Of a stretch of DNA of 16,246 bases, positions 1,300-16,246 are shown piece by piece; within the stretch, counting starts at the first letter, position 1; the number at the start of each line of letters is the position of its first letter. Origin of the DNA: Naegleria gruberi (taxonomy: Eukaryota); the NCBI GenBank assembly GCA_000004985.1, contig GG738971.1. The stretch is one strand, 5' to 3'. Both the position numbers and the translations under genes were made by a program. Below the pieces are notes generated by a model. It ran no database searches. It saw nothing but the letters and a program-made list of their open reading frames with translations, and had not been told where the DNA came from.

Positions 1300-4200
1300 N
1301 NNNNNNNNNNNNNNNNNNNNNNNNNNNNNNNNNNNNNNNNNNNNNNNNNNNNNNNNNNNNNNNNNNNNNNNNNNNNNNNNNNNNNNNNNNNNNNNNNNNN
1401 NNNNNNNNNNNNNNNNNNNNNNNNNNNNNNNNNNNNNNNNNNNNNNNNNNNNNNNNNNNNNNNNNNNNNNNNNNNNNNNNNNNNNNNNNNNNNNNNNNNN
1501 NNNNNNNNNNNNNNNNNNNNNNNNNNNNNNNNNNNNNNNNNNNNNNNNNNNNNNNNNNNNNNNNNNNNNNNNNNNNNNNNNNNNNNNNNNNNNNNNNNNN
1601 NNNNNNNNNNNNNNNNNNNNNNNNNNNNNNNNNNNNNNNNNNNNNNNNNNNNNNNNNNNNNNNNNNNNNNNNNNNNNNNNNNNNNNNNNNNNNNNNNNNN
1701 NNNNNNNNNNNNNNNNNNNNNNNNNNNNNNNNNNNNNNNNNNNNNNNNNNNNNNNNNNNNNNNNNNNNNNNNNNNNNNNNNNNNNNNNNNNNNNNNNNNN
1801 NNNNNNNNNNNNNNNNNNNNNNNNNNNNNNNNNNNNNNNNNNNNNNNNNNNNNNNNNNNNNNNNNNNNNNNNNNNNNNNNNNNNNNNNNNNNNNNNNNNN
1901 NNNNNNNNNNNNNNNNNNNNNNNNNNNNNNNNNNNNNNNNNNNNNNNNNNNNNNNNNNNNNNNNNNNNNNNNNNNNNNNNNNNNNNNNNNNNNNNNNNNN
2001 NNNNNNNNNNNNNNNNNNNNNNNNNNNNNNNNNNNNNNNNNNNNNNNNNNNNNNNNNNNNNNNNNNNNNNNNNNNNNNNNNNNNNNNNNNNNNNNNNNNN
2101 NNNNNNNNNNNNNNNNNNNNNNNNNNNNNNNNNNNNNNNNNNNNNNNNNNNNNNNNNNNNNNNNNNNNNNNNNNNNNNNNNNNNNNNNNNNNNNNNNNNN
2201 NNNNNNNNNNNNNNNNNNNNNNNNNNNNNNNNNNNNNNNNNNNNNNNNNNNNNNNNNNNNNNNNNNNNNNNNNNNNNNNNNNNNNNNNNNNNNNNNNNNN
2301 NNNNNNNNNNNNNNNNNNNNNNNNNNNNNNNNNNNNNNNNNNNNNNNNNNNNNNNNNNNNNNNNNNNNNNNNNNNNNNNNNNNNNNNNNNNNNNNNNNNN
2401 NNNNNNNNNNNNNNNNNNNNNNNNNNNNNNNNNNNNNNNNNNNNNNNNNNNNNNNNNNNNNNNNNNNNNNNNNNNNNNNNNNNNNNNNNNNNNNNNNNNN
2501 NNNNNNNNNNNNNNNNNNNNNNNNNNNNNNNNNNNNNNNNNNNNNNNNNNNNNNNNNNNNNNNNNNNNNNNNNNNNNNNNNNNNNNNNNNNNNNNNNNNN
2601 NNNNNNNNNNNNNNNNNNNNNNNNNNNNNNNNNNNNNNNNNNNNNNNNNNNNNNNNNNNNNNNNNNNNNNNNNNNNNNNNNNNNNNNNNNNNNNNNNNNN
2701 NNNNNNNNNNNNNNNNNNNNNNNNNNNNNNNNNNNNNNNNNNNNNNNNNNNNNNNNNNNNNNNNNNNNNNNNNNNNNNNNNNNNNNNNNNNNNNNNNNNN
2801 NNNNNNNNNNNNNNNNNNNNNNNNNNNNNNNNNNNNNNNNNNNNNNNNNNNNNNNNNNNNNNNNNNNNNNNNNNNNNNNNNNNNNNNNNNNNNNNNNNNN
2901 NNNNNNNNNNNNNNNNNNNNNNNNNNNNNNNNNNNNNNNNNNNNNNNNNNNNNNNNNNNNNNNNNNNNNNNNNNNNNNNNNNNNNNNNNNNNNNNNNNNN
3001 NNNNNNNNNNNNNNNNNNNNNNNNNNNNNNNNNNNNNNNNNNNNNNNNNNNNNNNNNNNNNNNNNNNNNNNNNNNNNNNNNNNNNNNNNNNNNNNNNNNN
3101 NNNNNNNNNNNNNNNNNNNNNNNNNNNNNNNNNNNNNNNNNNNNNNNNNNNNNNNNNNNNNNNNNNNNNNNNNNNNNNNNNNNNNNNNNNNNNNNNNNNN
3201 NNNNNNNNNNNNNNNNNNNNNNNNNNNNNNNNNNNNNNNNNNNNNNNNNNNNNNNNNNNNNNNNNNNNNNNNNNNNNNNNNNNNNNNNNNNNNNNNNNNN
3301 NNNNNNNNNNNNNNNNNNNNNNNNNNNNNNNNNNNNNNNNNNNNNNNNNNNNNNNNNNNNNNNNNNNNNNNNNNNNNNNNNNNNNNNNNNNNNNNNNNNN
3401 NNNNNNNNNNNNNNNNNNNNNNNNNNNNNNNNNNNNNNNNNNNNNNNNNNNNNNNNNNNNNNNNNNNNNNNNNNNNNNNNNNNNNNNNNNNNNNNNNNNN
3501 NNNNNNNNNNNNNNNNNNNNNNNNNNNNNNNNNNNNNNNNNNNNNNNNNNNNNNNNNNNNNNNNNNNNNNNNNNNNNNNNNNNNNNNNNNNNNNNNNNNN
3601 NNNNNNNNNNNNNNNNNNNNNNNNNNNNNNNNNNNNNNNNNNNNNNNNNNNNNNNNNNNNNNNNNNNNNNNNNNNNNNNNNNNNNNNNNNNNNNNNNNNN
3701 NNNNNNNNNNNNNNNNNNNNNNNNNNNNNNNNNNNNNNNNNNNNNNNNNNNNNNNNNNNNNNNNNNNNNNNNNNNNNNNNNNNNNNNNNNNNNNNNNNNN
3801 NNNNNNNNNNNNNNNNNNNNNNNNNNNNNNNNNNNNNNNNNNNNNNNNNNNNNNNNNNNNNNNNNNNNNNNNNNNNNNNNNNNNNNNNNNNNNNNNNNNN
3901 NNNNNNNNNNNNNNNNNNNNNNNNNNNNNNNNNNNNNNNNNNNNNNNNNNNNNNNNNNNNNNNNNNNNNNNNNNNNNNNNNNNNNNNNNNNNNNNNNNNN
4001 NNNNNNNNNNNNNNNNNNNNNNNNNNNNNNNNNNNNNNNNNNNNNNNNNNNNNNNNNNNNNNNNNNNNNNNNNNNNNNNNNNNNNNNNNNNNNNNNNNNN
4101 NNNNNNNNNNNNNNNNNNNNNNNNNNNNNNNNNNNNNNNNNNNNNNNNNNNNNNNNNNNNNNNNNNNNNNNNNNNNNNNNNNNNNNNNNNNNNNNNNNNN

Positions 4201-6460
4201 NNNNNNNNNNNNNNNNNNNNNNNNNNNNNNNNNNNNNNNNNNNNNNNNNNNNNNNNNNNNNNNNNNNNNNNNNNNNNNNNNNNNNNNNNNNNNNNNNNNN
4301 NNNNNNNNNNNNNNNNNNNNNNNNNNNNNNNNNNNNNNNNNNNNNNNNNNNNNNNNNNNNNNNNNNNNNNNNNNNNNNNNNNNNNNNNNNNNNNNNNNNN
4401 NNNNNNNNNNNNNNNNNNNNNNNNNNNNNNNNNNNNNNNNNNNNNNNNNNNNNNNNNNNNNNNNNNNNNNNNNNNNNNNNNNNNNNNNNNNNNNNNNNNN
4501 NNNNNNNNNNNNNNNNNNNNNNNNNNNNNNNNNNNNNNNNNNNNNNNNNNNNNNNNNNNNNNNNNNNNNNNNNNNNNNNNNNNNNNNNNNNNNNNNNNNN
4601 NNNNNNNNNNNNNNNNNNNNNNNNNNNNNNNNNNNNNNNNNNNNNNNNNNNNNNNNNNNNNNNNNNNNNNNNNNNNNNNNNNNNNNNNNNNNNNNNNNNN
4701 NNNNNNNNNNNNNNNNNNNNNNNNNNNNNNNNNNNNNNNNNNNNNNNNNNNNNNNNNNNNNNNNNNNNNNNNNNNNNNNNNNNNNNNNNNNNNNNNNNNN
4801 NNNNNNNNNNNNNNNNNNNNNNNNNNNNNNNNNNNNNNNNNNNNNNNNNNNNNNNNNNNNNNNNNNNNNNNNNNNNNNNNNNNNNNNNNNNNNNNNNNNN
4901 NNNNNNNNNNNNNNNNNNNNNNNNNNNNNNNNNNNNNNNNNNNNNNNNNNNNNNNNNNNNNNNNNNNNNNNNNNNNNNNNNNNNNNNNNNNNNNNNNNNN
5001 NNNNNNNNNNNNNNNNNNNNNNNNNNNNNNNNNNNNNNNNNNNNNNNNNNNNNNNNNNNNNNNNNNNNNNNNNNNNNNNNNNNNNNNNNNNNNNNNNNNN
5101 NNNNNNNNNNNNNNNNNNNNNNNNNNNNNNNNNNNNNNNNNNNNNNNNNNNNNNNNNNNNNNNNNNNNNNNNNNNNNNNNNNNNNNNNNNNNNNNNNNNN
5201 NNNNNNNNNNNNNNNNNNNNNNNNNNNNNNNNNNNNNNNNNNNNNNNNNNNNNNNNNNNNNNNNNNNNNNNNNNNNNNNNNNNNNNNNNNNNNNNNNNNN
5301 NNNNNNNNNNNNNNNNNNNNNNNNNNNNNNNNNNNNNNNNNNNNNNNNNNNNNNNNNNNNNNNNNNNNNNNNNNNNNNNNNNNNNNNNNNNNNNNNNNNN
5401 NNNNNNNNNNNNNNNNNNNNNNNNNNNNNNNNNNNNNNNNNNNNNNNNNNNNNNNNNNNNNNNNNNNNNNNNNNNNNNNNNNNNNNNNNNNNNNNNNNNN
5501 NNNNNNNNNNNNNNNNNNNNNNNNNNNNNNNNNNNNNNNNNNNNNNNNNNNNNNNNNNNNNNNNNNNNNNNNNNNNNNNNNNNNNNNNNNNNNNNNNNNN
5601 NNNNNNNNNNNNNNNNNNNNNNNNNNNNNNNNNNNNNNNNNNNNNNNNNNNNNNNNNNNNNNNNNNNNNNNNNNNNNNNNNNNNNNNNNNNNNNNNNNNN
5701 NNNNNNNNNNNNNNNNNNNNNNNNNNNNNNNNNNNNNNNNNNNNNNNNNNNNNNNNNNNNNNNNNNNNNNNNNNNNNNNNNNNNNNNNNNNNNNNNNNNN
5801 NNNNNNNNNNNNNNNNNNNNNNNNNNNNNNNNNNNNNNNNNNNNNNNNNNNNNNNNNNNNNNNNNNNNNNNNNNNNNNNNNNNNNNNNNNNNNNNNNNNN
5901 NNNNNNNNNNNNNNNNNNNNNNNNNNNNNNNNNNNNNNNNNNNNNNNNNNNNNNNNNNNNNNNNNNNNNNNNNNNNNNNNNNNNNNNNNNNNNNNNNNNN
6001 NNNNNNNNNNNNNNNNNNNNNNNNNNNNNNNNNNNNNNNNNNNNNNNNNNNNNNNNNNNNNNNNNNNNNNNNNNNNNNNNNNNNNNNNNNNNNNNNNNNN
6101 NNNNNNNNNNNNNNNNNNNNNNNNNNNNNNNNNNNNNNNNNNNNNNNNNNNNNNNNNNNNNNNNNNNNNNNNNNNNNNNNNNNNNNNNNNNNNNNNNNNN
6201 NNNNNNNNNNNNNNNNNNNNNNNNNNNNNNNNNNNNNNNNNNNNNNNNNNNNNNNNNNNNNNNNNNNNNNNNNNNNNNNNNNNNNNNNNNNNNNNNNNNN
6301 NNNNNNNNNNNNNNNNNNNNNNNNNNNNNNNNNNNNNNNNNNNNNNNNNNNNNNNNNNNNNNNNNNNNNNNNNNNNNNNNNNNNNNNNNNNNNNNNNNNN
6401 NNNNNNNNNNNNNNNNNNNNNNNNNNNNNNNNNNNNNNNNNNNNNNNNNNNNNNNNNNNN
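1300..6460. other. N-masked block or assembly gap of 5161 nt. Nothing can be inferred here. The giant X-filled ORFs in the track are artefacts.
   Basis: A contiguous run of n characters. Confidence 1.
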
Positions 6461-8452
6461 ATTGTTCAAGTTATAATAATGTTTATTGGTCTGTTAGTTT
6501 ATTGCAAATGAGGGAAGATTCTGAAATTCATGGAAATATTTTGGCCACAGAAGTGACAGCTTCGAATTCAAAAATTTATGGAACTCTGATTATACCAGAT
6601 TCGGCAACGATGGTAACTATATTCGAAACTACTCAGTTCATGAATTTTACTAATTGGGATCCTTATTCACCATTTGTTGATTCGAAATGTATTTCTTCTC
6701 AATCAGTAGTTTCGTCTAATGTTTCTTCCAATTCGACTGTGGTTACAAACAGTTCAGTTTCAGTCAATCAAACTATTATTAATTCCAACTCGTCAATGAT
6801 TAAGAACAATACTGTTTACAATAGTACAGTATTAAATAATTCCACATTGAATAATTATTCATCAATAGTTAACACTACTCAAGTTTCTAATAATATTACA
6901 GTTGGTAATTCAACAACTTTATCAAATTCTACAAACGTATTGAATAATTCCTCAATGAGTGGTAATTCGACCTTTTCCAATTCTACTAATTATGGAAATG
7001 GCTCACTTTCGAATACAACACAAGTGGTTTCTAATAATGTTACAGTTGGTAATTCAACAACTTTATCAAATTCTACAAAAGTAATGAATAATTCCTCAAT
7101 GAATGGTAATTCAACATTTTCCAATTCTACTAATTATGGAAATGGCTCACTTTCGAATACAACACAGGTAGTTTCTAATAATAATACAGTTGGTAATTCT
7201 TCAAATTTATCAAATACTACGATTGTACTGAATAATTCCTCAATGGAAAGTAATTCTTCACAAACAATTTCCAATTCCACTGTTGCCAATACTACAAATA
7301 TTCACGGAAATGACTCACTGTCGAATACAACGCAAAATGTTGCTAATAATAATACACTAGGAAATTCCACACAATTACTGAATATTTCAATGAACAGCAA
7401 TAGTACAAGCAATTATTCCAGTATTACCAACTCTACTAATTATGGAAATGAATCATTTGTGAATTCAACAAATAATTCAGTGAACAGCACTACTAATTCT
7501 ACTTTTATGGGAAATAGTTCAAATATTTCACAACAAGTGAATACAACCACAAATTCATCAATTGGAGTTGTTGATAACGAAACGACTATTCTTATGAATG
7601 AAACAAATGTTTCGAATAATAGCATTGTTGAAACTAATCAAACTCTGAATAATTCACAAATTGTTAACGAAACATCAACAGAATCCAATAATAATGGAAC
7701 AATTCAAAACAACTCTTCCCAAACTATTATTTCCAATAATTCATCCATTGTTAACGAAACTTCCAATACTTCTAATACTACAGAACTAATTTCTAATAAC
7801 ACAATAAGTGATTCAAATAACACATTTATCAATCAGTCAACTGTGGAACATCAAAATTCAACACTTAATCAAACTCTAATTAACAATCAAACTACTTTTG
7901 GAAATAGTTCAGTAATTGAAGTTCAAAACCAGGTCAATCAAACATCAAATATCTCTAACAGCACAAACAACACTTTAATTATTAATTCAACAATTATTTC
8001 TAACAATACAATTTCCAATTATAGTAATTCAGTATTACCAAGTAATGTCACAAATAATTCGACATTATCAATCAATAATACAATTCTAAATAATCAAAGC
8101 ACTGTAAATTCAACAACATCTAACCTGAATAATGAAACATTCAATAATCAGAATTCCAGTTTAAATAATTGTGACAGACATGTCAATTGCTCAAATCATG
8201 GCGATTGTAATTCAGAAGGACAATGCATATGTTCTTCAAATTATGAAGAAGGTTTCTGGTCTGGAACTAAGTGTGAATTTTGTGCGATTAACTTTTATGG
8301 AAAATTATGTAATACTAAAATTGTTGGTCCAGCTTTGATTTCACCAGATTTTACAGGCGTTACATTTATATTACATTCTGCACAGATGAATGATTCAATT
8401 CCTTGTGAAAAGATTATCAATCCACTTGATTTATCTATTTTTGGAAGTAAGC
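6461..8452 (+). CDS. Internal fragment, open at both ends into masked sequence, of a secreted or surface glycoprotein. It is Asn/Ser/Thr-rich and hyper-sequon-dense, with tandem repeats and a C-terminal EGF-like module.
   Basis: A 664-codon open frame without stops from the mask edge at 6461 to the mask edge at 8452. The track's start at 6502 is a TTG; the first ATG is at 6508 and there is no signal peptide, so the real 5' end is probably upstream in the masked region. There are dozens of N-x-S/T sequons (NST, NSS, NTT, NIS, NVT, NQT, NET and others), repeated about 48-aa units, and an 8-Cys module CDRHVNCSNHGDCNSEGQCICSSNYEEGFWSGTKCEFCAINFYGKLC. Confidence 0.75.
6883..7338 (+). repeat. Coding tandem repeat of three nearly identical 144-bp (48-aa) units starting at 6883, 7027 and 7171. 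More degenerate copies lie upstream (about 6790) and downstream (7339 to about 7510).
   Basis: Units 1 and 2 differ at about 8 of 144 nt. Unit 3 is about 80% identical. The encoded unit is VSNN[IVN]TVGNSTTLSNSTNVLNNSSM[SN]GNSTFSNSTNYGNGSLSNTTQV. Confidence 0.85.
8170..8310 (+). other. EGF-like module with eight cysteines (laminin/tenascin-type spacing) at the C-terminal end of the visible glycoprotein fragment.
   Basis: The cysteine pattern C-x5-C-x5-C-x5-C-x-C-x13-C-x2-C-x8-C, with the conserved G and aromatic positions (HGDC, GQCIC, GFWSG, YG..C). Confidence 0.7.
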
Positions 8453-11400
8453 NNNNNNNNNNNNNNNNNNNNNNNNNNNNNNNNNNNNNNNNNNNNNNNN
8501 NNNNNNNNNNNNNNNNNNNNNNNNNNNNNNNNNNNNNNNNNNNNNNNNNNNNNNNNNNNNNNNNNNNNNNNNNNNNNNNNNNNNNNNNNNNNNNNNNNNN
8601 NNNNNNNNNNNNNNNNNNNNNNNNNNNNNNNNNNNNNNNNNNNNNNNNNNNNNNNNNNNNNNNNNNNNNNNNNNNNNNNNNNNNNNNNNNNNNNNNNNNN
8701 NNNNNNNNNNNNNNNNNNNNNNNNNNNNNNNNNNNNNNNNNNNNNNNNNNNNNNNNNNNNNNNNNNNNNNNNNNNNNNNNNNNNNNNNNNNNNNNNNNNN
8801 NNNNNNNNNNNNNNNNNNNNNNNNNNNNNNNNNNNNNNNNNNNNNNNNNNNNNNNNNNNNNNNNNNNNNNNNNNNNNNNNNNNNNNNNNNNNNNNNNNNN
8901 NNNNNNNNNNNNNNNNNNNNNNNNNNNNNNNNNNNNNNNNNNNNNNNNNNNNNNNNNNNNNNNNNNNNNNNNNNNNNNNNNNNNNNNNNNNNNNNNNNNN
9001 NNNNNNNNNNNNNNNNNNNNNNNNNNNNNNNNNNNNNNNNNNNNNNNNNNNNNNNNNNNNNNNNNNNNNNNNNNNNNNNNNNNNNNNNNNNNNNNNNNNN
9101 NNNNNNNNNNNNNNNNNNNNNNNNNNNNNNNNNNNNNNNNNNNNNNNNNNNNNNNNNNNNNNNNNNNNNNNNNNNNNNNNNNNNNNNNNNNNNNNNNNNN
9201 NNNNNNNNNNNNNNNNNNNNNNNNNNNNNNNNNNNNNNNNNNNNNNNNNNNNNNNNNNNNNNNNNNNNNNNNNNNNNNNNNNNNNNNNNNNNNNNNNNNN
9301 NNNNNNNNNNNNNNNNNNNNNNNNNNNNNNNNNNNNNNNNNNNNNNNNNNNNNNNNNNNNNNNNNNNNNNNNNNNNNNNNNNNNNNNNNNNNNNNNNNNN
9401 NNNNNNNNNNNNNNNNNNNNNNNNNNNNNNNNNNNNNNNNNNNNNNNNNNNNNNNNNNNNNNNNNNNNNNNNNNNNNNNNNNNNNNNNNNNNNNNNNNNN
9501 NNNNNNNNNNNNNNNNNNNNNNNNNNNNNNNNNNNNNNNNNNNNNNNNNNNNNNNNNNNNNNNNNNNNNNNNNNNNNNNNNNNNNNNNNNNNNNNNNNNN
9601 NNNNNNNNNNNNNNNNNNNNNNNNNNNNNNNNNNNNNNNNNNNNNNNNNNNNNNNNNNNNNNNNNNNNNNNNNNNNNNNNNNNNNNNNNNNNNNNNNNNN
9701 NNNNNNNNNNNNNNNNNNNNNNNNNNNNNNNNNNNNNNNNNNNNNNNNNNNNNNNNNNNNNNNNNNNNNNNNNNNNNNNNNNNNNNNNNNNNNNNNNNNN
9801 NNNNNNNNNNNNNNNNNNNNNNNNNNNNNNNNNNNNNNNNNNNNNNNNNNNNNNNNNNNNNNNNNNNNNNNNNNNNNNNNNNNNNNNNNNNNNNNNNNNN
9901 NNNNNNNNNNNNNNNNNNNNNNNNNNNNNNNNNNNNNNNNNNNNNNNNNNNNNNNNNNNNNNNNNNNNNNNNNNNNNNNNNNNNNNNNNNNNNNNNNNNN
10001 NNNNNNNNNNNNNNNNNNNNNNNNNNNNNNNNNNNNNNNNNNNNNNNNNNNNNNNNNNNNNNNNNNNNNNNNNNNNNNNNNNNNNNNNNNNNNNNNNNNN
10101 NNNNNNNNNNNNNNNNNNNNNNNNNNNNNNNNNNNNNNNNNNNNNNNNNNNNNNNNNNNNNNNNNNNNNNNNNNNNNNNNNNNNNNNNNNNNNNNNNNNN
10201 NNNNNNNNNNNNNNNNNNNNNNNNNNNNNNNNNNNNNNNNNNNNNNNNNNNNNNNNNNNNNNNNNNNNNNNNNNNNNNNNNNNNNNNNNNNNNNNNNNNN
10301 NNNNNNNNNNNNNNNNNNNNNNNNNNNNNNNNNNNNNNNNNNNNNNNNNNNNNNNNNNNNNNNNNNNNNNNNNNNNNNNNNNNNNNNNNNNNNNNNNNNN
10401 NNNNNNNNNNNNNNNNNNNNNNNNNNNNNNNNNNNNNNNNNNNNNNNNNNNNNNNNNNNNNNNNNNNNNNNNNNNNNNNNNNNNNNNNNNNNNNNNNNNN
10501 NNNNNNNNNNNNNNNNNNNNNNNNNNNNNNNNNNNNNNNNNNNNNNNNNNNNNNNNNNNNNNNNNNNNNNNNNNNNNNNNNNNNNNNNNNNNNNNNNNNN
10601 NNNNNNNNNNNNNNNNNNNNNNNNNNNNNNNNNNNNNNNNNNNNNNNNNNNNNNNNNNNNNNNNNNNNNNNNNNNNNNNNNNNNNNNNNNNNNNNNNNNN
10701 NNNNNNNNNNNNNNNNNNNNNNNNNNNNNNNNNNNNNNNNNNNNNNNNNNNNNNNNNNNNNNNNNNNNNNNNNNNNNNNNNNNNNNNNNNNNNNNNNNNN
10801 NNNNNNNNNNNNNNNNNNNNNNNNNNNNNNNNNNNNNNNNNNNNNNNNNNNNNNNNNNNNNNNNNNNNNNNNNNNNNNNNNNNNNNNNNNNNNNNNNNNN
10901 NNNNNNNNNNNNNNNNNNNNNNNNNNNNNNNNNNNNNNNNNNNNNNNNNNNNNNNNNNNNNNNNNNNNNNNNNNNNNNNNNNNNNNNNNNNNNNNNNNNN
11001 NNNNNNNNNNNNNNNNNNNNNNNNNNNNNNNNNNNNNNNNNNNNNNNNNNNNNNNNNNNNNNNNNNNNNNNNNNNNNNNNNNNNNNNNNNNNNNNNNNNN
11101 NNNNNNNNNNNNNNNNNNNNNNNNNNNNNNNNNNNNNNNNNNNNNNNNNNNNNNNNNNNNNNNNNNNNNNNNNNNNNNNNNNNNNNNNNNNNNNNNNNNN
11201 NNNNNNNNNNNNNNNNNNNNNNNNNNNNNNNNNNNNNNNNNNNNNNNNNNNNNNNNNNNNNNNNNNNNNNNNNNNNNNNNNNNNNNNNNNNNNNNNNNNN
11301 NNNNNNNNNNNNNNNNNNNNNNNNNNNNNNNNNNNNNNNNNNNNNNNNNNNNNNNNNNNNNNNNNNNNNNNNNNNNNNNNNNNNNNNNNNNNNNNNNNNN

Positions 11401-11876
11401 NNNNNNNNNNNNNNNNNNNNNNNNNNNNNNNNNNNNNNNNNNNNNNNNNNNNNNNNNNNNNNNNNNNNNNNNNNNNNNNNNNNNNNNNNNNNNNNNNNNN
11501 NNNNNNNNNNNNNNNNNNNNNNNNNNNNNNNNNNNNNNNNNNNNNNNNNNNNNNNNNNNNNNNNNNNNNNNNNNNNNNNNNNNNNNNNNNNNNNNNNNNN
11601 NNNNNNNNNNNNNNNNNNNNNNNNNNNNNNNNNNNNNNNNNNNNNNNNNNNNNNNNNNNNNNNNNNNNNNNNNNNNNNNNNNNNNNNNNNNNNNNNNNNN
11701 NNNNNNNNNNNNNNNNNNNNNNNNNNNNNNNNNNNNNNNNNNNNNNNNNNNNNNNNNNNNNNNNNNNNNNNNNNNNNNNNNNNNNNNNNNNNNNNNNNNN
11801 NNNNNNNNNNNNNNNNNNNNNNNNNNNNNNNNNNNNNNNNNNNNNNNNNNNNNNNNNNNNNNNNNNNNNNNNNNNN
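8453..11876. other. N-masked block or assembly gap of 3424 nt. It hides the 3' part of the glycoprotein gene and the 3' two-thirds of the NirK gene.
   Basis: A contiguous run of n characters. Confidence 1.
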
Positions 11877-12623
11877 ATACGAATGTTCCATTAATTTTGG
11901 ATCATCATCTGATGGTTCACAATAGAATTCACTTTGCATGACATAGAATTCCTTATCTACTTTTGGTAATCCCTCTTCTGGCTCAACTAACATTAATCCA
12001 TACATGCCATTACTTATGTGTGAAGGAACTGGACCTGCAGCACAGTGATAGATAAATAAACCTGAAGTTAATAATTTGAAAAATCCTGTTTTTTCTTCAT
12101 CTTTTTCAGCCAATAACATTTCTGCACCTCCTCCTGGTCCTGTCACACAGTGAAAATCAATATTGTGAGCCATACCGGTTTCGTCCAAGTTTAGGTAATT
12201 GACTTGCATGACATCTCCAACTCTTGCTCTGATAAATGGTCCAGGAACTGTTCCATTAAATGTCCAATATGGATACTTGTACTGTTTGCTGATTGGTTTC
12301 ACTTCAATTGTGGTATCTAGATTAACAACTAATTGAACTGGATAATCACGGTCAATTGGTGGAGGAATTCCAGGAGCTTTTGTTAAAATTGCTTCAACAA
12401 CTGGCAACTCCAAATTTAATTCAGGAGCTTTCTTGAATTTCTTCATCATATTTTCAGGAAACAAACTATGTTTCTTTTGTGTTTCTTGTGCTTCAAGTAA
12501 ACTATCACATTGGTATTTGTAGTATTGATAAACACCTGTTCCAACAGCACAGGTTAGACCTAGGGATAATGCAATGTCAAAAGTCTTTGGTTTGACAGTT
12601 CTTAGTCTGTGGAACAGTTTCAT
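11877..12623 (-). CDS. nirK: Copper-containing nitrite reductase (NirK, NO-forming). This is the 5' portion only: the N-terminal targeting/anchor extension plus cupredoxin domain I. Domain II lies in masked sequence.
   Basis: The ATG is at 12623-12621 on the minus strand. The translation contains the diagnostic NirK motifs WTFNGTVPGP, HNIDFH (T1Cu His and T2Cu His), YHCAAGPVPSHISNGMYG (His-Cys, His at +9 and Met at +5, which are the T2/T1 ligands) and KEFYVMQSEFY. These align with bacterial NirK (TFNGSVPGP / HNIDFHAATGALGGGA / [24 protein letters not shown] / KIYYVGEQDFY). The first roughly 90 aa (MKLFHRLRTVKPK + hydrophobic FDIALSLGLTCAVGTGVY...) have no bacterial counterpart. Confidence 0.9.
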
Positions 12624-12717
12624 TAGTGTTGTATTGTTATTTTTTAATTGAAATGTTGAATAAGACTTTTTTTATGATTCTTTGAATTTCCATTTGTCCT
12701 CAAACATAATCCCATTA

Positions 12718-12785
12718 CTGTGGTTACGCAATGAAGTGCAAGCAATTCTACAATGAAATGCAAGCAATTATTTTTTGAACTGCAA
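12718..12785. repeat. Left terminal inverted repeat (68 bp). It contains TGCAAGCAATT subrepeats at 12737-12747 and 12759-12769, and a degenerate third copy at 12781-12791.
   Basis: Its reverse complement equals 15859-15926 at 68 of 68 positions, checked base by base. Confidence 0.9.
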
Positions 12786-12959
12786 CGAATAATTTAATGA
12801 ATTGAAAGTTTCTTGAACCACAATTCTTAAAATAGATCAAAGAGAAGTCACACTGTAAGATCAAGCTGTAGTTCTGCTTGTTTCGAATATTGATAATGAA
12901 TTTGTTTATTATATAAGATATTTTGTATTGTTATTAAGATGATTGATCACTCTTCATGT

Positions 12960-15722
12960 TCATTGAATTTTCTTTCCGAAAATTGAATCCTCCCATGACT
13001 CATTAAATAATTCATCTAATTCTTCGTCATAATCGCCAAGCTCAATTTTAGAGCTCTTCTTGGGTTCAGATTGAAAACCTTCTGATTCCGAAAGTGGGCT
13101 TTGTGGTTCAAATTCTACTACATGTAAATGTTGCAATCTAGCAACAAGTATAGCTCTGTAATTTGAAATAGAAAATGGTTTGGTCATAATATCGACGGCA
13201 TCAGATAGTGAAAATCCTGCTGAAAGAAAATCCATTAGTAATACACAATAATCACCACAATGATTTCCATCCACTTGAATTTTTTTTTGTAATGTTTTTC
13301 GAACAGTCTTTGGTTTTACAATAAATGATGGCAACATTTCAAATAATTCACTAGTCTCTGATTCTATCACTGAAAAATCCTTAGCGAAAGAATCAAAAAG
13401 AAACCAATCAGTGGATTGACAATCATAGATTAGTAAGTACCAGTGTAATGATCTTGCCACAGGAAAAATTATAAATCCTTTTGATGTAAATTTCATACTC
13501 TTTGGTAAGTTTGTTTCTATGAATTTTTTGGATTGGTTAGTAACTCTTTGAGAGAAATCAGACGGTATGTATTGTAAATATTGTGAGCTGATTTTGGAAA
13601 AACAAATTCCAAATATATCAAAAGTATTTCCAGGTAAGAATACAGTGTCATCTTTGATAGTCTCCAATGCCTCAGTAGATAAAGTGATTGAACAAGCAAT
13701 TGTTTCTGTTGAAAGAACGTACAATTGTAGATTGGCAGCATTTTGTTGGATGTTATAGTTAAATTCTGTTTTGTTTTGTATGTGAAGTATTATTTTAGAT
13801 ATTTGTTCTACCTGTTTTTGGTCAAAATTTTCTTTCATGGAATCACTATCAATCCAAGGATTGTTTACATCATCTAAGATGGGATCTTGATCTAATTTCT
13901 CATCTGTCTCTACCTTAACTGATGGTGTAGGTAGTTCTACATAGAATTGACCAATACACATAGGATTAAATTCTCTGATATATAAATCATACAAATCATT
14001 ATTCATTTTCAGTGAAGCTCTGACATACTTCAAGTATTCCTCTTCTGAATCATAATTCCAAATATCCATTAAACATTTTCTAAAACTGTTTACAATCACA
14101 TCTGGATTCATGTTAGAAATAATCTGCTCAAATGCTGCATTTCTTGATTTTCTATCAGAATTAGAATTATTCTTTTTCCAATCAGCTAATTCTCTTTTTG
14201 CATATCTGAAACACATATTATCCAATGGTGATTGATGGTGCCCACCTACAGGAAGTAAAATGTTAATTCTATTATGTTGTTTCAAAATCTTTTGAACTGA
14301 TTTACACTTATGATGAGAGAGATTATCCCATAATAAAATGTCTCCTTCTTTTGAATTAGGAATATAAACTTTTTCAACCCATTGCTCAATATGTTCAATA
14401 TGAACACCAGCAATTTTTTCCTCAACAGTTACCTTATTACCATTAATAGTTGATTTCTTTCCTGGCACTGACTCAACAATAGACACTGGTAATACACCTC
14501 CTTCTGCCGTTACAGCAACTAAAAAAGTATCCTTAATATCATCAGCCAATTGTAAAACAACTGCATCATCGTCCTTGATTGGAGTATTTGTTCTTTCCGT
14601 CGCCTTAGTATTTGTTCCAGTTTCATCAAAAACCACAATTTTACTTCTATCAATGGATTTTAAATTTCTAAACATTATTGCTGCATAGAAGCAATAATAA
14701 TAGTAGGTTCTATATAATTGCTCATAAGCTGTTTCAATTCTTTCTCTCTTGGTAATTGTTGTTTTGATCTTCCTTTTATAAAGAAACTTCTTGGAAAATT
14801 TGGAAATATAATCTACTGAAGGTGTTTTCTTTAATCCTGCAACTTCCTTCATTATTTCTCCAAGTCTTATATTACTAACTTGTTTTTTCTCACTCCGTTC
14901 CTTACGAGTAATATCAATAACCTGTAAAATTTGGTCTTTCAATAATAATGGAGGTGGGTGACCACGTTCAACCTTTAATGTTAGTTCATTCCTCTTGCAT
15001 GCCGATAAATATCTGCTAAATTGTGAAGGTGAGATATTATTTTGTTTAGCAAATTCCTGTTGTGATCCACGGTCGGGTGTTGAATATTGTTCTTTATACT
15101 TCTCAACAAGTTTAATTTGTTCTTCTCTTGTTTTTTGAACATAACCAACTTTTCTTTTGTTTTTAAACCCTATCAATACTATTTTATCATCAGGATTTTC
15201 CTTTTTTTCTGTCTCCTCCAGGTTTACCAGTTTTGCTTTCTTTGCTTGACTTTCATTGTATGTTTCTTGATTCCGTTCAACAATTAATAGGGCTTTTTTT
15301 TTGATGTTGTCTTCGAATGACTCATCTCTTTCATCCGTCTCTTCCTCAACAGAAGAACAAATTCTAGTTACCAATTTTGCTACCAGAGCATCTTTTCTAA
15401 GATTACCTCCTGTCTCTCCAAATTCACTCTTCAAAAACTCCTTCAAAAACTTGACATTTTTCATTGTCAATTGATCACGGATTGCCTCTTCCACATTCTC
15501 AAACTTTCGTTTTGTTCCTTTTTTTAGCTTCTTTGGTTTTTCTTCTTTTTTCTTGCCTGGTGTTTTTTCATCTTTCTTTTTACTGGGTGTGTTATCTGGT
15601 TGATCTTGTGTACAGGTCCATGAAGGAACTTGAGATACTGAAGGTAGCAAATCTATTAAATTGCTATAGCTGGAGAAGCTTTGTGGTGAAGTGTCATAGC
15701 TACTCGATTGCTTGTTTGACAT
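12960..15722 (-). CDS. Transposase fused to a Ulp1-like protease. From the N terminus: a basic NLS-like region, CENP-B/pogo-type HTH domains, a DDE_1 catalytic core, and a C-terminal Ulp1/C48 cysteine peptidase domain. It is 920 aa long and ends with a TGA stop.
   Basis: Residues 47-73 are KKKDEKTPGKKKEEKPKKLKKGTKRK. HTH-like segments lie around aa 195-300. The DDE_1 motifs are VVFDETG (D366), ILLWDNLSHH (D466) and QSPLDNMCFRYAK (D501), which gives D-D-35-D spacing and the pogo DNxxH / QPLD signatures. The Ulp1 motifs are SLHWYLLIYD (H760), WFLFDS (D777) and KIQVDGNHCGDYC (Q816, C822), with His-Asp spacing of 17 and Gln-Cys spacing of 6 as in Ulp1. Confidence 0.9.
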   Translation of the reverse strand: MSNKQSSSYDTSPQSFSSYSNLIDLLPSVSQVPSWTCTQDQPDNTPSKKKDEKTPGKKKEEKPKKLKKGTKRKFENVEEAIRDQLTMKNVKFLKEFLKSEFGETGGNLRKDALVAKLVTRICSSVEEETDERDESFEDNIKKKALLIVERNQETYNESQAKKAKLVNLEETEKKENPDDKIVLIGFKNKRKVGYVQKTREEQIKLVEKYKEQYSTPDRGSQQEFAKQNNISPSQFSRYLSACKRNELTLKVERGHPPPLLLKDQILQVIDITRKERSEKKQVSNIRLGEIMKEVAGLKKTPSVDYISKFSKKFLYKRKIKTTITKRERIETAYEQLYRTYYYYCFYAAIMFRNLKSIDRSKIVVFDETGTNTKATERTNTPIKDDDAVVLQLADDIKDTFLVAVTAEGGVLPVSIVESVPGKKSTINGNKVTVEEKIAGVHIEHIEQWVEKVYIPNSKEGDILLWDNLSHHKCKSVQKILKQHNRINILLPVGGHHQSPLDNMCFRYAKRELADWKKNNSNSDRKSRNAAFEQIISNMNPDVIVNSFRKCLMDIWNYDSEEEYLKYVRASLKMNNDLYDLYIREFNPMCIGQFYVELPTPSVKVETDEKLDQDPILDDVNNPWIDSDSMKENFDQKQVEQISKIILHIQNKTEFNYNIQQNAANLQLYVLSTETIACSITLSTEALETIKDDTVFLPGNTFDIFGICFSKISSQYLQYIPSDFSQRVTNQSKKFIETNLPKSMKFTSKGFIIFPVARSLHWYLLIYDCQSTDWFLFDSFAKDFSVIESETSELFEMLPSFIVKPKTVRKTLQKKIQVDGNHCGDYCVLLMDFLSAGFSLSDAVDIMTKPFSISNYRAILVARLQHLHVVEFEPQSPLSESEGFQSEPKKSSKIELGDYDEELDELFNESWEDSIFGKKIQ
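13113..13625 (-). other. Ulp1 / SUMO-protease-like cysteine peptidase domain (C48 family) at the transposase C-terminus.
   Basis: The catalytic His-Asp-(Gln)-Cys arrangement HWYLL...FLFDS...QVDGNHCGDYC has canonical spacing and is followed by an acidic tail. Confidence 0.75.
14088..14690 (-). other. DDE_1 (pogo/Tigger/Fot1-type) catalytic domain of the transposase.
   Basis: The D366 / D466 / D501 triad lies within the characteristic motifs DETG, LLxDNxxxH and LPxxxxxxxSPLD. Confidence 0.8.
14823..15140 (-). other. Helix-turn-helix DNA-binding region of the transposase, of the CENP-B/pogo N-terminal type (two HTH units).
   Basis: Segments QQEFAKQNNISPSQFSRYLSACKR and HPPPLLLKDQILQVIDITRKERSEKKQVSNIRLGEIMKEV resemble psq/HTH_Tnp_Tc5-like helices. 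This is assigned by pattern, not by alignment. Confidence 0.5.
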
Positions 15723-15797
15723 TTTATAAATTTATTGCTTCTTCTGCTGATTGGAAGTTTTGATGTGTGTTTTGCAAGTTTCTTGATCAAAGTGGAA

Positions 15798-15804
15798 ATT
15801 TATA
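15798..15804 (-). promoter_or_regulatory. Candidate TATA box (TATAAAT on the minus strand) about 76-82 nt upstream of the transposase ATG, inside the element.
   Basis: The motif appears on visual inspection in the 136-bp region between the right TIR and the ATG. This region is AT-rich, so specificity is low. Confidence 0.2.
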
Positions 15805-15858
15805 TTTAGACTTTCTTGCAGTTCGTCAGCAAGTAATTGTACTACATTGTAGAATTGC

Positions 15859-15926
15859 TTGCAGTTCAAAAAATAATTGCTTGCATTTCATTGTAGAATT
15901 GCTTGCACTTCATTGCGTAACCACAG
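15859..15926. repeat. Right terminal inverted repeat (68 bp). It contains AATTGCTTGCA subrepeats at 15853-15863, 15875-15885 and 15897-15907, which is 22-bp phasing.
   Basis: It is a perfect reverse complement of 12718-12785. The internal 19-bp CATTGTAGAATTGCTTGCA occurs at 15845-15863 and 15889-15907. Confidence 0.9.
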
Positions 15927-16246
15927 TAGTACAGAGAACGGCTGTTTTTTAAAATATATAAAAAAGGTTCTGAGCGATGGATTATGATTTATTGGATTAT
16001 GAATTGATATTTAGAGTATTTGGATAATTGGATGTTGCTCATTGTTAAGTTCAGTTTAATTTTTGATTAATTTGAATTCAAAAAATTGGCCAAGTCTCCA
16101 GGGAATCGATCTCGTAGGATTCTGGTGTTGTTGGCTTGTTGTTTATTCAATTCAATGACAAACTGTATGGGGTTCACATAAAAAATTCCCAGAGATGGGT
16201 TGAGCTTTGCTTAATTGCTTGTGCATGTAATGAATAGTTACTGAAA

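Follow-up and report, generated by a model that had tools for sequence, protein, structure and literature searches.

A 16,246-bp scaffold of Naegleria gruberi, referred to in its entirety as the window, contains at positions 12718-15926 a genuine transposon of the IS630/Tc1/mariner superfamily, bounded by terminal inverted repeats (TIRs) and flanked by TA dinucleotides, whose 920-amino acid (aa) transposase bears a Ulp1-like domain in its C-terminal part. The interpretation that we favor, to which a probability of about 0.6 may be given, is that the transposon is complete and that its transposase carries a divergent, catalytically competent peptidase of the Ulp1/SENP type acting on a ubiquitin-like modifier. 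This interpretation is built on the integrity of the open reading frame (ORF), the identity and spacing of the putative catalytic residues, the homology and predicted fold of the domain, the anatomy of the element, an architecture shared with relatives and a conservation that is far higher in the domain than in the linkers flanking it; it is from these data that we infer the catalytic activity, the nature of the substrate and the benefit to the element.

The ORF is indeed devoid of stops and frameshifts, as had been claimed in the first-pass annotation of this DNA, and its product is 100% identical over the full length to XP_002668708.1 (NAEGRDRAFT_54650), a protein whose sole annotation is “predicted protein”, so that no introns need be invoked. 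The same annotation had placed the Ulp1-like domain at 13113-13625 with no mention of the strand; the feature is real but belongs to the minus strand, where this segment encodes aa 700-870, whereas coding by the plus strand was rejected, its translation being full of stops. Furthermore, the protease, for which the word cargo had been used, is not encoded by a gene of its own but represents the C-terminal domain of the transposase polypeptide itself. On the other hand, His760, Asp777, Gln816 and Cys822 are read in the translation in the Ulp1 order and with the spacings originally reported (His-Asp = 17 and Gln-Cys = 6 residues), and the acidic, Asp/Glu-rich tail said to follow the domain is present.

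Taken alone, a residue pattern of this type is weak, since the bare pattern H-x16-D...Q-x5-C occurred in 547 of 20,000 shuffles of the 920-aa protein (2.7%), and independent support was needed for this reason; the extended motif HW...D...Q-x5-CG was found in 0 of 20,000 shuffles of the same protein. The frequency of the bare pattern would be compatible with a chance arrangement of four residues in a C-terminal region that is not a protease, as would the Pfam search with the full-length protein, which gave a sub-threshold match to DDE_3 and none to C48, while phmmer with the full-length protein against the PDB sequences returned nothing relevant. The C48 signal becomes visible solely with the isolated domain or with a family profile. 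Indeed, the isolated segment aa 630-885 matches Pfam Peptidase_C48 (PF02902) with E=5.9e-4 and 20.2 bits, and the threshold of this family is passed by three of the four relatives described below (P0003, P0004 and P0005, with 21.4, 29.6 and 40.5 bits, respectively). The profile derived from the alignment of the five Ulp domains (N. gruberi, P0002, P0003, P0004 and P0005) matches, among the solved structures, SENP8 (7e-8), XopD (1e-7), SENP7 (7e-6) and Ulp1 (1EUV, 1.5e-5), in addition to SENP1/2/5, the ChlaDUBs and poxvirus I7. In these alignments the HW, (Y/F)DS and Q..(Y/H)(D/H)CG motifs are paired with the solved structures, and the four residues fall on the catalytic residues of SENP8 and XopD. 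The alignment with yeast Ulp1 that had been proposed at the outset was reproduced by hhalign, which places His760, Asp777, Gln816 and Cys822 on His514, Asp531, Gln574 and Cys580; the numbering of the yeast sequence used (residues 403-621) matches the published catalytic positions.

A structural model of aa 675-885, predicted by AlphaFold2 from the same five-member alignment, has a mean predicted local distance difference test (pLDDT) score of 73.4, rising to 81-86 near the catalytic residues, and a predicted template modelling score of 0.75. In this model His760 opens a strand, Asp777 comes after the next strand and Cys822 is located at the N-terminus of a helix, and a Foldseek search of the PDB with the model yielded SENP5, Ulp2, SENP2 and Ulp1 with probability 1.0. 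The modelled domain is thus supported as having a Ulp1/SENP-type (clan CE) fold with the four catalytic residues on the expected secondary-structure elements. Since the profile and fold evidence are independent of the residue pattern, the latter can be regarded as a real match, and the profile matches, the residue mapping and the fold refute the chance explanation, whose probability is reduced to practically nil. The possibility that the protease derives from viruses or Polintons was also considered and ranked lower, the viral CE proteases scoring well below the SENP/Ulp enzymes.

The limits of the element (3,209 bp) were drawn where they are because the identical 68-nt ends each abut a TA. 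The inverted repeats flanking the ORF are 84 nt long and 93% complementary as found by repeat search, the terminal 68 nt being perfect in the end-to-end alignment, and they contain a 19-nt motif (Table 1) that has four matches in the window against 0.01 expected and is symmetrically placed in both TIRs; the motif pairs are probably transposase-binding sites. As to the transposase, aa 220-493 (274 residues) match the NCBIfam IS630 transposase profile NF033545 with E=1.8e-15, at a score of 57 bits that is lower than the bacterial equivalog cut-off of 100, and Pfam DDE_3 is matched below threshold (E=7e-6, 26.3 bits vs. a cut-off of 28.6). TA target-site duplication, TIRs and a transposase homologous to those of IS630/Tc1, three attributes of the IS630/Tc1/mariner superfamily, are therefore present, and the initial claim that the gene is carried by a cut-and-paste transposon was borne out. 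From the motifs VVFDETG, LLWDNLSHH and QSPLD, residues D366, D466 and D501, the last two separated by 34 residues, are inferred to form the DDE/D triad. The third motif resembles the “QPLD” of pogo/Fot1, and a weak match to the pogo-group DDE_1 was seen in a single relative, P0002 (E=7e-4, under the cut-off); a CENP-B-type helix-turn-helix (HTH) was not detected by the Pfam scan of the N. gruberi protein. With pogo, Tigger, Fot1 and other members of the superfamily the element shares the TA duplication, TIRs with internal repeats, a HTH region on the N-terminal side and the motifs DE(T), DN..H and QxPLD; it differs from these transposons in that its scores do not reach the curated cut-offs set for Pfam DDE_3/DDE_1 and NCBIfam IS630. 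The AlphaFold2 model of the transposase region is poor (pLDDT 44), the HTH helices within it reaching 70-85, and a transposase profile gave no match among the PDB sequences. On the whole, the transposon is probably complete and functional to date, with a pogo-like D..D..D transposase.

Table 1. Coordinates of the transposon, of its ORF and of the putative catalytic residues in the window
Feature	Position	Strand	Remarks
Left TA target-site duplication	12716..12717	.	Read from the sequence; paired with the right TA in the end alignment
Left TIR	12718..12799	+	Terminal 68 nt (12718-12785), CTGTGGTTACGC..., identical to right end
Two copies of the 19-nt motif CAATGAARTGCAAGCAATT	12729..12769	+	22 nt apart, inside left TIR; candidate transposase-binding sites
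Transposase and Ulp1-like fusion ORF	12960..15722	-	Single, intronless, 920 aa, stop codon included; open frame without internal stop
Acidic C-terminal tail, aa 871-920	12963..13112	-	14/50 Asp/Glu; poorly conserved
Ulp1/SENP-like clan CE cysteine peptidase domain, aa ~683-868	13119..13676	-	Structured part of the AlphaFold2 model
Cys822 codon	13257..13259	-	Aligned to Ulp1 Cys580 (nucleophile); helix N-terminus in model
Gln816 codon	13275..13277	-	Aligned to Ulp1 Gln574 (oxyanion-hole residue)
Asp777 codon	13392..13394	-	Aligned to Ulp1 Asp531
His760 codon	13443..13445	-	Aligned to Ulp1 His514; starts a beta-strand in model
Linker between transposase and protease, aa ~601-682	13677..13922	-	Poorly conserved; no Gly-Gly
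DDE/D catalytic core of the transposase, aa ~341-600	13923..14702	-	NCBIfam IS630 and Pfam DDE_3 matches; motifs
Helical DNA-binding (HTH-type) region, aa ~194-340	14703..15143	-	Within the IS630 profile match
Lys/Glu-rich N-terminal extension, aa 1-193	15144..15722	-	38% charged residues; missing from relative L001
Right TIR	15845..15926	-	Terminal 68 nt (15859-15926) identical to left end
Two copies of the 19-nt motif in right TIR	15875-15893 and 15897-15915
Right TA target-site duplication	15927..15928	.	End alignment

Relatives of the domain are rare. An exhaustive phmmer search with aa 630-885 against 1.84 billion cluster representatives yielded four of them at E<1e-3, namely P0002-P0005, and no match emerged when metagenome contigs were scanned with the domain alignment or when viral contigs were scanned. 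A homologue search with the full-length protein returned the query alone, and those with the domain alignment and the transposase fragment did not return even the query; these outcomes are taken to say nothing about whether homologues exist. At the nucleotide level, L001 (ENA) and L005 (JGI) represent the same locus (99.9% identity), whose product is 36-40% identical to the N. gruberi protein and has the same HTH-DDE-linker-Ulp order, the Lys/Glu-rich N-terminus being absent. In this locus a 2-nt insertion (L001 nt 1098-1100, likewise in L005) splits the transposase ORF between the first and the second catalytic Asp, and this frameshift is real, and not an assembly error, because it is found in two independent metagenome assemblies; the downstream ORF of 461 aa, comprising the second and third Asp and the Ulp domain, stays open. 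In L002 the DDE region is decayed and internally deleted and a 215-aa Ulp ORF (671-1318) is intact, while in L003 (2713-3846), whose neighbors look like ordinary host genes (F-box), the HTH is joined directly to the Ulp domain with no DDE domain in between; the Ulp ORFs of these two loci may be either non-autonomous derivatives or domesticated protease genes. As far as these sequences go, the association of transposase and Ulp domain is common to the environmental relatives.

Comparison of N. gruberi with L001 revealed that the Ulp domain (36% identity) is conserved nearly as the HTH (41%) and the DDE core (46%), unlike the linker (18%) and the tail (19%). Within the domain, the relatives are 23-33% identical to N. 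gruberi and the five-member alignment contains 12 invariant columns in all, which include His760, Trp761, Gln816, Cys822 and Gly823. Together with a dN (nonsynonymous divergence) of ~0.3 at saturated synonymous sites between the Ulp domains of L001 and L002, this distribution argues for long-term purifying selection on the Ulp domain and specifically on its active-site motifs, although it does not amount to a clean estimate of omega; that both indels of the contig L004, described below, are in frame also speaks for constraint.

Several observations weigh against the interpretation that we favor. The position of Asp777 is occupied by Asp in three of the five members, i.e., N. gruberi, P0005 and, allowing for a 2-residue hairpin insertion, P0004, and by Ser (VFSSF) in P0002 and P0003, which belong to the L001/L002 lineage and keep His, Gln and Cys; judging from the alignment, this replacement could reflect either a working Cys-His dyad or lost activity. 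Synonymous sites are saturated in every pair of relatives, so that the ratio of nonsynonymous to synonymous substitutions (dN/dS) is not interpretable (e.g., dN ~0.3 and dS >1.8 for the Ulp domains of L001 vs. L002), and the two synonymous and two nonsynonymous changes that separate the contig L004, described below, from N. gruberi are too few for such a test. The N. gruberi domain falls 0.5 bit short of the PF02902 gathering score (20.2 vs. 20.7 bits), and of the two Trp of Ulp1 (W448 and W515 in 1EUV) that clamp the Gly-Gly of the substrate, the second has an invariant equivalent in the five-member family (W761), while the first, which forms one side of the Gly-Gly tunnel, is replaced by Phe in N. 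gruberi, Trp being found at this position in P0002, P0003 and P0005. Clan CE also includes deneddylases, deubiquitinases and polyprotein-processing proteases; the best sequence match being the deneddylase SENP8, the term deSUMOylase used in the first-pass annotation goes beyond the data. Finally, the relatives were found via predicted proteins, an ascertainment that favors intact ORFs, and the two N. gruberi copies to be described below might be alleles on an unmerged haplotig, and not the outcome of recent transposition.

Some of these data, namely the Ser in place of the third triad residue in two relatives and the Phe in place of Trp448, together with a divergence so extreme that only the four above-mentioned relatives could be retrieved, are also what would be expected of a pseudo-protease, i.e., of a dead Ulp1 fold retained for binding SUMO/Ubl (ubiquitin-like modifier) or for interacting with other proteins, by which the transposase would be anchored to modified chromatin. 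Such a role is unlikely, inasmuch as His, Gln, Cys and the adjoining Trp and Gly do not vary among sequences that are 23-33% identical to the N. gruberi domain, which is the signature of kept catalysis rather than of binding alone, and N. gruberi does retain the Asp.

The state of the copies is relevant to another alternative, according to which the gene has been domesticated by the host or is a dead relic, no longer mobile, so that the protease would not be functionally carried by a transposon. A second copy of the protein, XP_002669668.1 (NAEGRDRAFT_75468), was found in the same 90% protein cluster; it is encoded on a contig of 196,593 bp, is likewise 920 aa long and differs at four residues alone (S47I, R82H, Y656H and Q864K), and could correspond to a further insertion or to the allele of the other haplotype. 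Thus, two annotated copies, possibly alleles, are known in N. gruberi; of the relatives, L001/L005 are frameshifted, and the DDE region is decayed in L002 and absent from L003; no clear TIRs were seen in L001-L005, in which the terminal 12-mer of the N. gruberi element (CTGTGGTTACGC) has no copy, and a 26-mer of the TIR was not found in the JGI metagenome contigs. All this notwithstanding, domestication or decay is most improbable for the N. gruberi element, whose TIRs are perfect over 68 nt, whose TA duplications are intact, whose 19-nt motifs are symmetric and whose ORF, with all the transposase motifs, is uninterrupted, as one would expect if the copy were young or active. The small, gap-rich 16,246-bp scaffold may itself represent a haplotype that was not merged with the 196,593-bp scaffold carrying NAEGRDRAFT_75468.

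Among the environmental sequences, a near-identical match is provided by L004, an 832-bp metagenome contig that is 98.2% identical to positions 12868-13626 and whose coding part displays, in addition to the changes mentioned above, two indels that are both in frame. Upstream of position 13626 the similarity stops abruptly, the first 70 nt of the contig matching nothing in the window, and at 239-244 an in-frame deletion of 6 nt removes Arg-Ser, two residues ahead of His760. This contig could be a rearranged or deleted copy, or else a chimeric assembly.

With regard to function, the Ulp domain would be a catalytically competent thiol peptidase or isopeptidase that is brought to DNA by the transposase and that would cleave a ubiquitin-like modifier, most likely SUMO, NEDD8 or ubiquitin being possible, from the transposase itself or from chromatin or repair proteins present at the element. 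The removal of the modifier might favor transposition or the escape from host repression. By analogy with its nearest structural relatives, modifier removal is the best-supported reading of the role of the domain. A more far-reaching proposal, which may be advanced tentatively and with considerable doubt, is that an undescribed heterolobosean lineage of Tc1/mariner/pogo-type elements recruited an active Ubl-specific (SUMO-type) protease as an effector directed against chromatin, silencing or repair factors of the host, and that this protease was useful enough to be preserved in an intact ORF also in L002 and L003, where the DDE domain decayed or was lost.

Alternatively, the protease could act in cis, cutting its own 920-aa precursor, e.g., after a Gly-Gly, and thereby releasing or activating the transposase, as do the CE proteases of adenovirus, poxvirus and African swine fever virus and as proposed for the NeSL-type retrotransposons. 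Self-processing of this kind is improbable, the linker being not conserved and having no Gly-Gly and the sole SUMO-like ETGG (aa 103-106) being located in a region that is missing from L001. The latter tetrapeptide, encoded at 15405-15416 and followed by an Asn, resembles the QTGG with which mature SUMO ends, and may serve as a cleavage site for the protease of the protein itself or, not being conserved in L001, be a chance occurrence.

We know of no canonical IS630-Tc1-mariner member with a protease domain, and a full-text literature search, which did not extend to Repbase and Dfam, retrieved no report of C48 combined with a Tc1/mariner/pogo transposase nor of a C48 transposon in Naegleria. 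The fusion of a C48 domain to this transposase superfamily, in this host lineage, therefore appears to be unreported. By contrast, the more general contention of the first-pass annotation that a protease of this type is an unusual cargo does not hold, insofar as Ulp1/C48 domains recur in Mutator-like elements (MULEs), CACTA, Ginger1, Crypton and NeSL/Utopia. The closest parallel is offered by Ginger1, a cut-and-paste element bounded by TIRs whose DDE-type transposase has an in-frame C-terminal Ulp1 (pfam02902) domain, for which a role in transposition or repair has been proposed; Hydra, lancelet and plants also have Mutator elements endowed with the domain (Bao, Kapitonov & Jurka 2010, PMC2836005). 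Unlike the element described here, which is of the IS630/Tc1/mariner type, targets TA and resides in a heterolobosean amoeba, Ginger1 has a Gypsy-integrase-like transposase and a 4-bp target-site duplication and inhabits animals such as Hydra; in addition, the N. gruberi C48 domain is far more divergent, lying below the Pfam threshold. Since the N. gruberi transposase is of the IS630/Tc1 type, its profile matches being to IS630/Tc1 and not to the Gypsy-integrase-like (Ginger1) or MURA-type (MULE) enzymes, the element is to be considered an analogue, and not a member, of the Ginger1/KI-MULE group of ULP-bearing transposons.

Among the plant elements, ULP-carrying MULEs (KAONASHI/KIU-VANDAL and CUMULE) and CACTA-ULP elements are known (PMC2528002, PMC13317346), and they resemble the N. 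gruberi element in that a Ulp1-like domain has spread within DNA transposons and has been conserved over long periods. In those elements, however, the domain is seen as transduplicated from host ULP genes and is usually found either together with Tnp2 or, in non-TIR MULEs, in an ORF that is separate or accessory (VANC-type), whereas in N. gruberi it lies within the sole ORF and has no close similarity to any cellular ULP; the function of the KAONASHI/KIU-VANDAL domain was still called unknown in a 2026 review (PMC13317346). Independent associations of a Ulp1-like protease with a mobile element are also represented by CryptonF and CryptonS of oomycetes, which carry C48 peptidases (PMC3212892), and by the NeSL/Utopia non-LTR (long terminal repeat) retrotransposons, in which the protease is N-terminal (PMC4640811). 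The former differ from the present case in their mobility enzyme, a tyrosine recombinase, and in domain order, the latter in having a reverse transcriptase and a restriction-like endonuclease, in domain order and, for NeSL, in the presumed polyprotein-processing role. Compared to the cellular enzymes, i.e., yeast Ulp1 and human SENP1-8 (PDB 1EUV, 2BKQ, 9GNN and others), the N. gruberi domain has 14-19% identity and is distinguished by the Phe replacing Trp448 and by the fusion to a transposase.

Mobile elements of at least five kinds have acquired Ulp1/C48 domains independently of one another, and the N. gruberi case adds a further event of this type. The addition of a new transposase superfamily and of a deeply branching eukaryote (Discoba) strengthens the case that the deconjugation of ubiquitin-like modifiers is a general advantage for transposons. 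With a length of 3.2 kb, one intronless ORF and perfect ends, the element is suited to a heterologous transposition assay. If it is true that an active protease was recruited by this lineage, the element would offer a compact and tractable system to understand why transposons keep capturing Ulp1 domains; if, on the other hand, the domain is inactive or dispensable, the finding shrinks to an extra annotation of a “predicted protein”.

Some features of the termini of the protein may also be mentioned. At aa ~88-120, within the N-terminal extension, visual inspection had suggested a SAP domain, for which Pfam gave no match even at E<=10. Directly after the protease fold, at 13080-13121 (aa 868-881), a VVEF sequence is followed by the Ser/acidic stretch EPQSPLSESE, and VV with acidic runs is found at the same place in the relatives (L001 RVVTNDSGEDDSPVEF, L002 DVVDDIEF); by eye only, this stretch resembles a SUMO-interacting motif.

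The scaffold has a G+C content of ~31% throughout, with no compositional break at the transposon, and contains two N runs, at 1300-6460 (5,161 nt) and 8453-11876 (3,424 nt), which together make up 53% of its length. A multicopper-oxidase gene (Pfam Cu-oxidase_3, E=7e-7), the ATG of which is at 12623 on the minus strand, has the left end of the transposon only ~95 bp upstream of this codon (12623-12717), and the insertion may sit in its promoter; by eye, the product of the gene resembles a NirK-type copper nitrite reductase. On the plus strand, an open frame of 650 codons (6502-8452) runs into an N gap and encodes a repetitive, extremely Asn/Ser/Thr-rich protein with dense N-x-S/T sequons and, at its end, a Cys-rich, EGF-like stretch, the last 184 residues having no Pfam match; the product is probably a glycosylated surface protein. 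Another plus-strand gene, at 805-1299, encodes a C2 domain (Pfam C2, E=1.9e-14); it extends beyond what is probably an intron and is truncated by the first N run.

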